Positions 18,921-19,874 of a stretch of 64,000 bases of DNA are shown one piece after another. Origin of the DNA: a phage. The stretch lies in assembly GCA_019326865.1 (NCBI GenBank), contig GCA_019326865.1_4101.1; one strand, written 5' to 3'. Each line of letters starts with the position of its first letter. Within the stretch, counting starts at the first letter, position 1. A program made the translations under genes and the position numbers. The notes beneath the pieces are model-generated. The model worked only from the letters and a program-made list of their open reading frames with translations, was not told the DNA's origin and did not search any database.

Positions 18921-19874
18921 TTGAAAAAACTAGATTTGAATGCAATTGCAGATGAAGTACTGGATGAATGTTTTTCTAGTGAAGAAGTCAATACACTTGA
19001 TGCATTAGATTCAGTTCAAGATGAAGATAAAGTTCAAAGTAATTTCAAGTTTAATATTAGTCTTAAGCGTCCACATAATGTAACAAATGAAGATCTAATT
19101 CGTGATATTCAAGCTGGAATCAATGTAAAGAAAAACACTGAACTATTAGTTCGTTATAATTATGGACTAATTGTTGATGTTGCAAGTAAATGCACATGTT
19201 ATATCCCATTTGAAGATAAGATATCATATGGTATTGAGGGATTCATGCGAGCACTAAAAACATTTGATCTTAGTAAGAATGTCAAGTTCGTTACATACGC
19301 ATCTTCCAGCATTTATATGACAGTATACAATGAAAGTTCAGATGCCAATCATCTGGTACATTTTCCCCGCTATATGAGTGTTAATAAGATCCAAGTTAAA
19401 CGCTTTTGTCATGAATACGAGCGTAAGCACGGTTGTCGTCCAACACCTGAACAAATTTCAGAGGGAACGGGAATTGAAATTCAACATGTAAAGAATTGTT
19501 TGTTATTCCAAAGTGAATATACGGCATTGGATGCACCATTGGATGGTGTTTCGGATGGTACGTTAAGTGATATTCTTCATACATCTGCTTGCGATTATAA
19601 TCTTAGTGTTGATAGTATTCGTGCACCGTTGCGTTATGTCATTAATGATCTAACACATGAATTGAGTACAAAAGAACGTGAAATTATCCAGCGTGTTCAT
19701 GGTTTAGGTGAATTTAATCCTGAATCACTACGTGAAATTGCTGATAGTGGGTTTGTTGATGACAATGGTAAATGTGTTAAATCAAGATCATCTGTGCACC
19801 GTAAATATAGTGAAGCTATAAAAAAGCTTAAGAAATTAGTACTTGAAAAAGGGTACGAATACGAAGATTTCTAA
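18921..19874 (+). CDS. sigma-70 family sigma factor-like protein (regions 2 and 4)
   Basis: Region-2-like LLVRYNYGLIVDVASK...GIEGFMRALKTFD...KFVTYASSSI and region-4-like LSTKEREIIQRVHGL...RSSVHRKYSEAIKKLKK; TTG start after SD GGAG. Confidence 0.6.
   Translation: MKKLDLNAIADEVLDECFSSEEVNTLDALDSVQDEDKVQSNFKFNISLKRPHNVTNEDLIRDIQAGINVKKNTELLVRYNYGLIVDVASKCTCYIPFEDKISYGIEGFMRALKTFDLSKNVKFVTYASSSIYMTVYNESSDANHLVHFPRYMSVNKIQVKRFCHEYERKHGCRPTPEQISEGTGIEIQHVKNCLLFQSEYTALDAPLDGVSDGTLSDILHTSACDYNLSVDSIRAPLRYVINDLTHELSTKEREIIQRVHGLGEFNPESLREIADSGFVDDNGKCVKSRSSVHRKYSEAIKKLKKLVLEKGYEYEDF

Follow-up and report, generated by a model that had tools for sequence, protein, structure and literature searches.

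The 64,000-nucleotide stretch of phage DNA analysed here (contig GCA_019326865.1_4101.1; hereafter the window) carries on its + strand, at positions 18921-19874, an open reading frame (ORF) of 317 amino acids (aa) plus stop, with a TTG start codon, which is almost certainly a bona fide sigma-70-family member: the sigma factor of an Asteriusvirus jumbo phage, with regions 1.2, 2, 3, 3.2 and probably 4. As an annotated gene it was already known. We propose that it acts in an early-middle-late transcription cascade, in which the phage sigma, made early, would read a distinct class of promoters (class B) found upstream of replication genes and of the gene for a second, gp55-like sigma. Promoter and protein sequences together lead us to give this reading a probability of roughly 55%.

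Identification of a sigma-70-family factor

Profile searches place the protein in the sigma-70 family, as the initial annotation had claimed. Pfam Sigma70_r3 (PF04539) matches aa 158-222 at 2.3e-10 (40.9 bits against a cut-off of 25.3) and Sigma70_r2 (PF04542) matches aa 76-137 at 2.2e-5 (24.6 bits, cut-off 24.0). NCBIfam TIGR02937 scores 47.2 bits, above its cut-off of 42.9, and a PHROG scan at E <= 0.01 returned PHROG 351, 'RNA polymerase sigma factor' (1.1e-53), as the only match, with no gp55 family. Equivalog models for RpoD and RpoS give E-values of 1e-22 to 1e-19, but their bit scores stay far below the cut-offs (TIGR02393, 79 bits against 354; TIGR02394, 69 against 379). When the PDB was searched with the single sequence, RpoD ranked best (2.7e-14), and a profile of 14 family sequences reached about 1e-25 against SigA, RpoS and RpoD.

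The initial annotation had recognised regions 2 and 4. Region 2 was significant by profile, as was region 3, but Pfam Sigma70_r4 (PF04545) matched weakly and below its threshold (aa 247-275; E = 0.027, 14.4 bits against 24.1), a result to be set against our reading of the protein. The model misses significance because a 9-aa insertion breaks the helix-turn-helix of sigma-4, and region 4 is indicated by the family alignment and the AlphaFold model. The latter, built on the family alignment, shows confident sigma-2, sigma-3 and sigma-4 domains (predicted local distance difference test, pLDDT, 80-90) joined by flexible linkers. Foldseek against the PDB returned sigma-factor chains or models throughout the top 50 matches listed, with sigmaS (6omf_F) best at 8.4e-11, and the alignments to full-length sigmas extend over 250-285 columns.

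Over the 5 kb around the gene, identity is 97.6% to Escherichia phage UE-S1 (Asteriusvirus, 358 kb) and about 89% to 121Q, PBECO4 and relatives; the orthologues in UE-S1 (UES1_148), 121Q (gp167), PBECO4, RaK2 (ORF244), GAP32 and CBB (CBB_513) bear sigma-factor annotations. Group-2 jumbo phages have been described as possessing phage sigma factors and no phage RNA polymerase, the sigma factors being of two kinds, RpoD-like and minimal gp55-like, accompanied by gp33 (Iyer et al., PMC7824862), and the RpoD-like sigma was presented as a hallmark of the group in the Sharanji paper. Since the window belongs to an Asteriusvirus whose relatives carry annotated orthologues, the gene is expected in this lineage, and the initial view that a sigma of this type was out of place in a T4-type early region finds no support. 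The gp55-like late sigma of the lineage is encoded by a separate gene outside the window (121Q gp591, with PHROG 12791 at 2.7e-154 and PHROG 234 at 8.4e-18; RaK2 ORF082), so that the sigma-70-type factor is an addition to gp55 and not its replacement.

A search of 1.84 billion cluster representatives yielded just 20 clusters at E <= 1e-30, beyond which scores drop to the generic sigma level of about 1e-30 to 1e-25 (22,981 proteins at E <= 1e-10). By sequence, the window sigma is thus part of a small, distinct clade of sigmas from jumbo phages (Rak2-like, group 2), clearly apart from cellular sigmas. Our literature search found no experimental work on this clade. Delivery of the sigma with the virion or the injected DNA, which was also considered, found no support: the 121Q record labels proteins detected by mass spectrometry as 'virion structural protein' and gp167 is not among them, and the phAPEC6 proteome paper mentions the sigma as a gene only.

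A candidate class of middle promoters

The promoters proposed as targets emerged from the whole 121Q genome, where hexamers enriched 16-18 nt upstream of TATAAT were counted with no prior motif. The top hexamer was GGGACA (12 observed, 0.19 expected), followed by TTGACA (32 against 0.86) and CTTGCA. We define class B as G(G/A)GACA-16-TGnTATAAT, or in its fuller form G(G/A)GACA(AA)-16 nt-TG(A/C)TATAAT. In 121Q the + strand has 20 such G[GA]GACA sites and the - strand has 0, compared with 4.6 +/- 1.9 on either strand of simulated sequences. These sites are far more uniform than the TTGAC[AT] promoters, with an exact TATAAT in 18/20, a 16-nt spacer in 17/20 and the TG in 16/20. TTGAC[AT] promoters of the same genome have an exact TATAAT in 37% of cases, prefer a 17-nt spacer and carry the TG in 28%.

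The two classes also occupy different parts of the 121Q genome. Of the TTGAC[AT] promoters, 72/107 fall in the 50-175 kb bins, where the small early ORFs are found; class B sites lie mostly outside this block, upstream of ssb (two copies), primase, exonuclease, topoisomerase II, the DNA polymerase region and a nudix hydrolase, and one of them, at 321900, precedes the gp55-like late sigma gene gp591 (start 321985). Structural genes carry (T)ATAAATA, a motif of the T4 late type. The window holds four class B sites, at 5061 (before tRNA-Arg), 19911, 30300 and 57302, of which one stands directly 3' of the sigma terminator:

19911-19938, + strand: candidate class B middle promoter, GGGACA-16-(TGa)TATACT

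Its 121Q equivalent reads GGGATG-16-(TGTGA)TATAAT, and in the two other orthologous pairs (30300 and 101440; 57302 and 135737) the boxes are kept and the spacer has diverged.

Related arrangements are found in two further genera. A 'divergent RpoD-like' class, TGAAACG-N13-TGnTATAAT, has been reported in CBB before DNA-synthesis genes and the gp55-like gene (PMC5259590, text and Table S6). Over the first 150 kb of RaK2, the hexamers enriched upstream of TATAAT were TGAACG, GAACAA, TTGAAC and TGAACA; TTTTTGAACAAAA-...-TATAAT (also given as TTGAACAAAA-...-TATAAT) precedes the primase, recB-like exonuclease and topoisomerase II genes, and a weaker TTGAATAAAA version of the box precedes the gp55-like gene. 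The three genera thus have in common a -35 box other than TTGACA and an extended -10, together with part of the regulon, and each lineage has its own box (GGGACAAA in Asteriusvirus, TGAACAAAA in RaK2, TGAAACG in CBB). The CBB type itself was sought in the window and discarded as a candidate: TGAAAC...TATA gave chance-level matches only, none at a promoter position, the Asteriusvirus box being GGGACA.

The recognition helix of sigma-4 varies among the same three lineages as well (SRSSVHRKY, VRGTLHYKF and SKATLSRRY). Such covariation of box and helix would be expected if the phage sigma reads the box, and would equally be expected of a co-evolving activator.

Domain anatomy and departures from RpoD and RpoS

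Residues were compared in a MAFFT alignment of the window sigma with E. coli RpoD, RpoS and 18 representatives of the phage clade; calls of invariance refer to the alignment designated A1. The features of the protein, all on the + strand, are as follows.

18921-19058, aa 1-46: acidic N-terminal segment with the motif MKKLDLNxIxDEVLDECF, predicted to be disordered (pLDDT < 50)
19068-19136, aa 50-72: region-1.2-like segment, RPxxVTNEDLIRDIQAG, aligning with PLLTAEEEVYFARR of RpoS; N56 and E57 invariant in A1
19137-19340, aa 73-140: sigma-2 domain (Pfam region 2 at aa 76-137), aligning with RpoD 375-450; helices at pLDDT of about 80
19350-19625, aa 144-235: sigma-3 domain (Pfam region 3 at aa 158-222) and region-3.2 linker with the finger-like motif LDAPLDGVSDGTLSDIL
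19629-19847, aa 237-309: sigma-4 domain, AlphaFold helices 237-246, 250-260, 270-276 and 289-309 at pLDDT 85-90
19749-19781, about aa 277-287 (GFVDDNGKCVK): sigma-4 insertion in the turn of the helix-turn-helix, predicted beta-hairpin
19782-19808: start of the -35 recognition helix, S288 R289 S290 S291 V292 H293 R294 K295 Y296, aligned by MAFFT with RpoD 583-600

All five peptides on which the initial annotation was based are present, namely LLVRYNYGLIVDVASK (aa 75-90), GIEGFMRALKTFD (104-116) and KFVTYASSSI (122-131) in its region-2-like core, and LSTKEREIIQRVHGL (248-262) and RSSVHRKYSEAIKKLKK (289-305) in what it took for a region-4.2 helix-turn-helix; the first of the latter two belongs to region 4.1 and not to 4.2. 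Where that annotation spoke of a conventional sigma, we find departures from group-1/2 sigmas at the residues that read DNA in regions 2.3/2.4, 3.0 and 4.2.

In sigma-2, the residues kept (RpoD numbering in brackets) are D99 (D403), F115 (F419), K122 (K426), F123 (F427), T125 (T429), Y126 (Y430) and A127 (A431), G408 and G411 are conserved too, and two replacements are conservative (E420 -> D116, R423 -> K119). F115, D116, K119 and Y126, which we take to be residues of the A-11 pocket, are all kept in the window sigma. The melting pair W433/W434 is replaced by S129/S130, and the Trp pair is absent from every member of the clade. Three further residues of the domain are changed (Q437 -> M133, T440 -> Y136, R441 -> N137). 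In region 3.0, P149 (P453) is invariant, and the changes H455 -> Y151 and E458 -> V154 fall inside a clade-specific P-x-Y-(L/M)-S motif.

The sigma-4 insertion amounts to 9 aa (GFVDDNGKC), with AlphaFold strands at 278-279 and 285-286; it is found in 18/18 clade representatives (4 residues shorter in P0028, 3 in P0031) and is absent from RpoD and RpoS, and its residues G277, D280 and G283 are invariant in A1. The helix that follows reads SRSSVHRKY where E. coli RpoD has TRERIRQIE (T583 R584 E585 R586 I587 R588 Q589 I590 E591): R584 is kept, E585 is replaced by S, R588 by H (variable in the clade) and Q589 by R (nearly invariant), and H293, R294 and Y296 are invariant in A1. The hairpin, the missing Trp pair, P-x-Y-(L/M)-S and TNE-x-LI are signatures that the window sigma shares with the clade representatives. 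The N-terminal motif MKKLDLNxIxDEVLDECF, common to many clade members, has no counterpart in RpoD or RpoS; K2, L4, D5, L6, I9, L14 and F18 are invariant in A1, and the segment could be a region-1.1-like autoinhibitory element or a docking motif.

The proposed cascade and its alternatives

Small ORFs, seven tRNAs and homing endonucleases are arrayed on the + strand of the window, consensus TTGACA-16/18-TATAAT promoters are frequent there, and two promoters of host type stand in front of the sigma gene:

17328-17356, + strand: TTGACA-17-TATAAT, 12/12 matches, likely start of the operon that ends in the sigma gene
17649-17676, + strand: TTGACA-16-TACAAT, 11/12 matches, second promoter, inside the operon
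19880-19910, + strand: intrinsic terminator 6 nt past the sigma stop (10-bp stem, 5 G-C pairs, T-run), also annotated in UE-S1

ORFs are packed tightly between 17375 and 19874 with no strong terminator in between, and the sigma gene is the last of them. Because consensus sigma-70 promoters head this operon and a terminator closes it, we infer that the sigma gene is an early gene read by host sigma-70. In the cascade that we propose, the host sigma-70 holoenzyme would transcribe the gene early from the promoters at 17328 and 17649; the sigma protein would bind the host core RNA polymerase; sigma-4, with its hairpin and the helix SRSSVHRKY, would direct that core to class B promoters; these would switch on the gp55-like late sigma gene along with genes for replication and nucleotide metabolism; and the gp55-like sigma would in turn drive the ATAAATA late promoters. 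The suggestion in the initial annotation that the sigma may direct an alternative promoter class is, in this form, plausible. Alternative sigmas without melting residues need near-consensus promoters; the phage sigma, missing the W433/W434 melting pair, would accordingly need near-perfect ones, which fits the near-invariant class B sites.

Several points weigh against this cascade besides the sub-threshold match of region 4. The -10 of class B is a perfect host extended -10 (TGnTATAAT), which E. coli sigma-70 could use without a -35 box, and the phage sigma has replaced the readers of the TG (H455 -> Y, E458 -> V) as well as the -12 reader Q437. Only three lineages underlie the covariation of the box with the recognition helix. 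The literature search brought up neither mapped transcription starts nor biochemistry for any Asteriusvirus. A T4-style scheme, host sigma-70 with an activator at the -35, explains the same class B data.

This last scheme, an appropriation of the host sigma, is the main rival, although we hold it to be unlikely. Host sigma-70 would read class B through the extended -10, a phage activator would bind the GGGACAAA box, and the phage sigma would have another job, serving a small subset of promoters or a particular growth state of the host. The exact agreement of the -10 elements with the E. coli extended -10 consensus and the loss of H455, E458 and Q437 from the phage sigma both speak for it, as does the precedent of T4, whose middle promoters combine a sigma-70 -10 element with a MotA box in place of the -35. 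Against it, and in favour of the cascade, no AsiA or MotA was found by Pfam among 120 ORFs of the window, and for the rest of 121Q an insensitive tblastn search with a T4 AsiA sequence gave one non-significant match (gp502, E = 0.065) without Pfam support. As the profile scan covered the smaller part of the early region of about 150 kb, this negative is weak, a limit that counts among the points against the cascade, and hundreds of early ORFs with no assigned function could hide an activator. Appropriation would nevertheless assign no promoter class to a full-length sigma that is conserved and expressed early, and the stringency of class B suits an alternative sigma of weak melting capacity and not sigma-70.

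Another role, which we consider improbable, would have the phage sigma sustain or take over early-type promoters (TTGAC[AT] with a CAGTACTG spacer, or AAAAAGTACTTGCAA-17-TATAAT) once host sigma-70 is inactivated. These variants, which may be what the initial annotation meant by an alternative dialect, are abundant around the sigma gene, and a 121Q kinase in the same region is annotated as 'inhibitor of host transcription'. Yet such promoters have perfect sigma-70 hexamers at -35 and -10, and in the phage sigma most -35 readers are altered (E585 -> S, R588 -> H, Q589 -> R; R584 kept), as are the -12 readers. The sigma gene itself depends on promoters of this type, so that host sigma-70 must read them first.

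Least probable of all, in our estimation very much so, is a decoy that binds the host core or displaces sigma-70 and shuts off host transcription while recognising no promoter itself. Residues of region 2.2 that contact the core do differ from RpoD at several positions (QEGNIG -> SYGIEG), and the conserved acidic N-terminus has no assigned role, but the elements that contact DNA (the A-11 pocket, the basic helix with its near-invariant Arg, and the sigma finger) are kept across the clade down to about 27% identity, which would be surprising in a protein that does nothing but compete.

Beyond the window, the cascade can be widened to a distinct sigma-70 branch confined to Rak2-like jumbo phages, in which the sigma-4 hairpin and a re-tuned helix would read lineage-specific -35 boxes, the Trp melting pair is missing, and a middle regulon would include the gp55-like sigma. 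We put this forward tentatively, its chances being in our view slightly short of even.

Gene start and immediate neighbours

The remaining features next to the sigma gene are its ribosome-binding site and the gene directly 5' of it:

18910-18914, + strand: Shine-Dalgarno sequence AGGAG, 6 nt 5' of the TTG start
18402-18899, + strand: 165-aa upstream neighbour, beginning MTT (PHROG 24804)

The TTG start is sound, since nearly all homologues begin with MKKLDL and the UE-S1 orthologue is annotated with an identical start site. The 165-aa neighbour is 47% identical to RaK2 ORF243 (3e-56) and 28% to Munch gp486 (1e-22), both of which also lie directly upstream of a sigma gene, an arrangement suggestive of a protein that may be a functional partner of the sigma. 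An HslV-like protease was considered for it on a weak match to PHROG 1040 ('peptidase HslV family', 2.7e-4), which no Pfam or PDB sequence match accompanies; the AlphaFold model of the neighbour has a pLDDT of 60 and gave no Foldseek match at E <= 0.001.

Directly 3' of the sigma gene lies a 662-bp stretch free of ORFs (19875-20536), entered by the class B promoter at 19911. Comparable gaps exist in 121Q (90233-90954) and RaK2, and UE-S1 has a repeat_region annotated at this place. RNA from the window stretch is predicted to fold a little more stably than shuffled sequences do (z = -2.58, 0/100 shuffles as stable), and the stretch may encode a phage non-coding RNA. Rfam at a relaxed threshold gave a chance-level SurA match and no family for the gap, and an Rfam scan of the whole window found tRNAs only.

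Other signals in the window

The palindrome CAGTACTG occurs 48 times in the window against 0.6 expected (for example at 3682, 6685, 22283, 36093, 57401 and 62843), by far the most enriched palindromic 8-mer, and is as conspicuous in 121Q (194, 3.4 expected) and in 150 kb of RaK2 (68, 1.4 expected). It lies within ORFs, in terminator stems and, in several early promoters, in the spacer just 5' of the -10 (TTGAC[AT]-N8-CAGTACTG-TATAAT); it could serve as an operator in the shut-off of early promoters, or as a genome-wide signal of another kind. Neither the window nor 121Q contains GGTACC (31.5 expected in the latter).

Terminators and promoters are fused in six modules of the form AAGGGTTGACTTAGGTCAGCCCTTTTTT(N)TATAAT (28007-28060, 30789-30867, 33338-33403, 37853-37919, 41249-41315 and 42532-42599), where each terminator doubles as the next promoter because its hairpin holds the TTGAC(T) -35 and its T-run leads into the -10. 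The hairpin at 19880-19910 behind the sigma gene belongs to this type too, except that the promoter that comes next is of the GGGACA class. A third promoter family, very uniform and with A-rich sequence upstream, has the form AAAAAGTACTTGCAA-17-TATAAT-GTTTTACATC and is found on the + strand at 58619, 59079, 59784, 60341, 61138, 62031 and 62499, every 0.4-0.9 kb before tiny ORFs, with G-rich hairpins following the promoter; it also fills 137-155 kb of 121Q, and its members look like strong immediate-early promoters.

Five paralogues lie in tandem on the - strand at 46944-53172 and encode repeat proteins of the RCC1-like type ('regulator of chromosome condensation'); 121Q has about 15 such genes. 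Upstream of every one stand GT(A/T)AAATAyAGTATAATGAAT, a motif that matches the late ATAAATA type, and a strong Shine-Dalgarno sequence, but no TTGACA box. A + strand cluster of seven tRNAs (4194-9119) comprises Gly-tcc twice, Arg-tct, Ser-act (an unusual anticodon call), Met, Asn and Thr.

Comparison with known systems and implications

The closest relatives of the window sigma are the other sigmas of Rak2-like, group-2 jumbo phages, with orthologues at 98% (UE-S1), about 84% (121Q), 42% (RaK2) and 33% (CBB) identity. In length, position at the end of an early operon, sigma-4 insertion and loss of the Trp pair they do not differ from it in any essential respect, the window carrying an almost identical allele. 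E. coli RpoD and RpoS provide the best profile and fold matches and have the same domain order 1.2-2-3-3.2-4, but identity is 22-23% and the window sigma is without region 1.1.

SPO1 gp28 is a sigma-70-family protein encoded by an early gene; it replaces the host sigma on the host core and turns on middle genes that include the late factor (PMC13401047). The sequence of gp28 for middle and gp33/34 for late transcription follows the same logic as the cascade that we infer here from sequence only. SPO1 differs in its Gram-positive host and in its late factor, that of the window lineage being gp55-like, and no specific sequence relationship was sought or found. phiEco32 gp36, an extracytoplasmic-function (ECF)-like (group 4) sigma, is small and without region 3, whereas the window sigma has regions 1.2, 3 and 3.2. 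Like the window sigma, gp36 is a sigma-70-family factor encoded by an E. coli phage; with the helper gp79 it uses the host core for middle and late promoters, and phage 7-11 has such a factor as well (PMC12276001, PMC8948821). T4 gp55 redirects the host core in a T4-related virus, as is proposed for the window sigma, but is of an unrelated sequence class, the window sigma belonging to PHROG 351.

If the cascade is true, phages of 350 kb would time their program with two phage sigmas on the host core, a sigma-70-like one for middle and a gp55-like one for late genes. The candidate promoter set makes the function of the sigma directly testable in vitro with the E. coli core enzyme. The same system would show how a helix-turn-helix bearing a hairpin reads a -35 box other than TTGACA, and how initiation proceeds without the W433/W434 wedge. 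Should the wider reading for the Rak2-like branch hold, these phages of Gram-negative hosts would combine a T4-type late system with a sigma cascade in the manner of SPO1.

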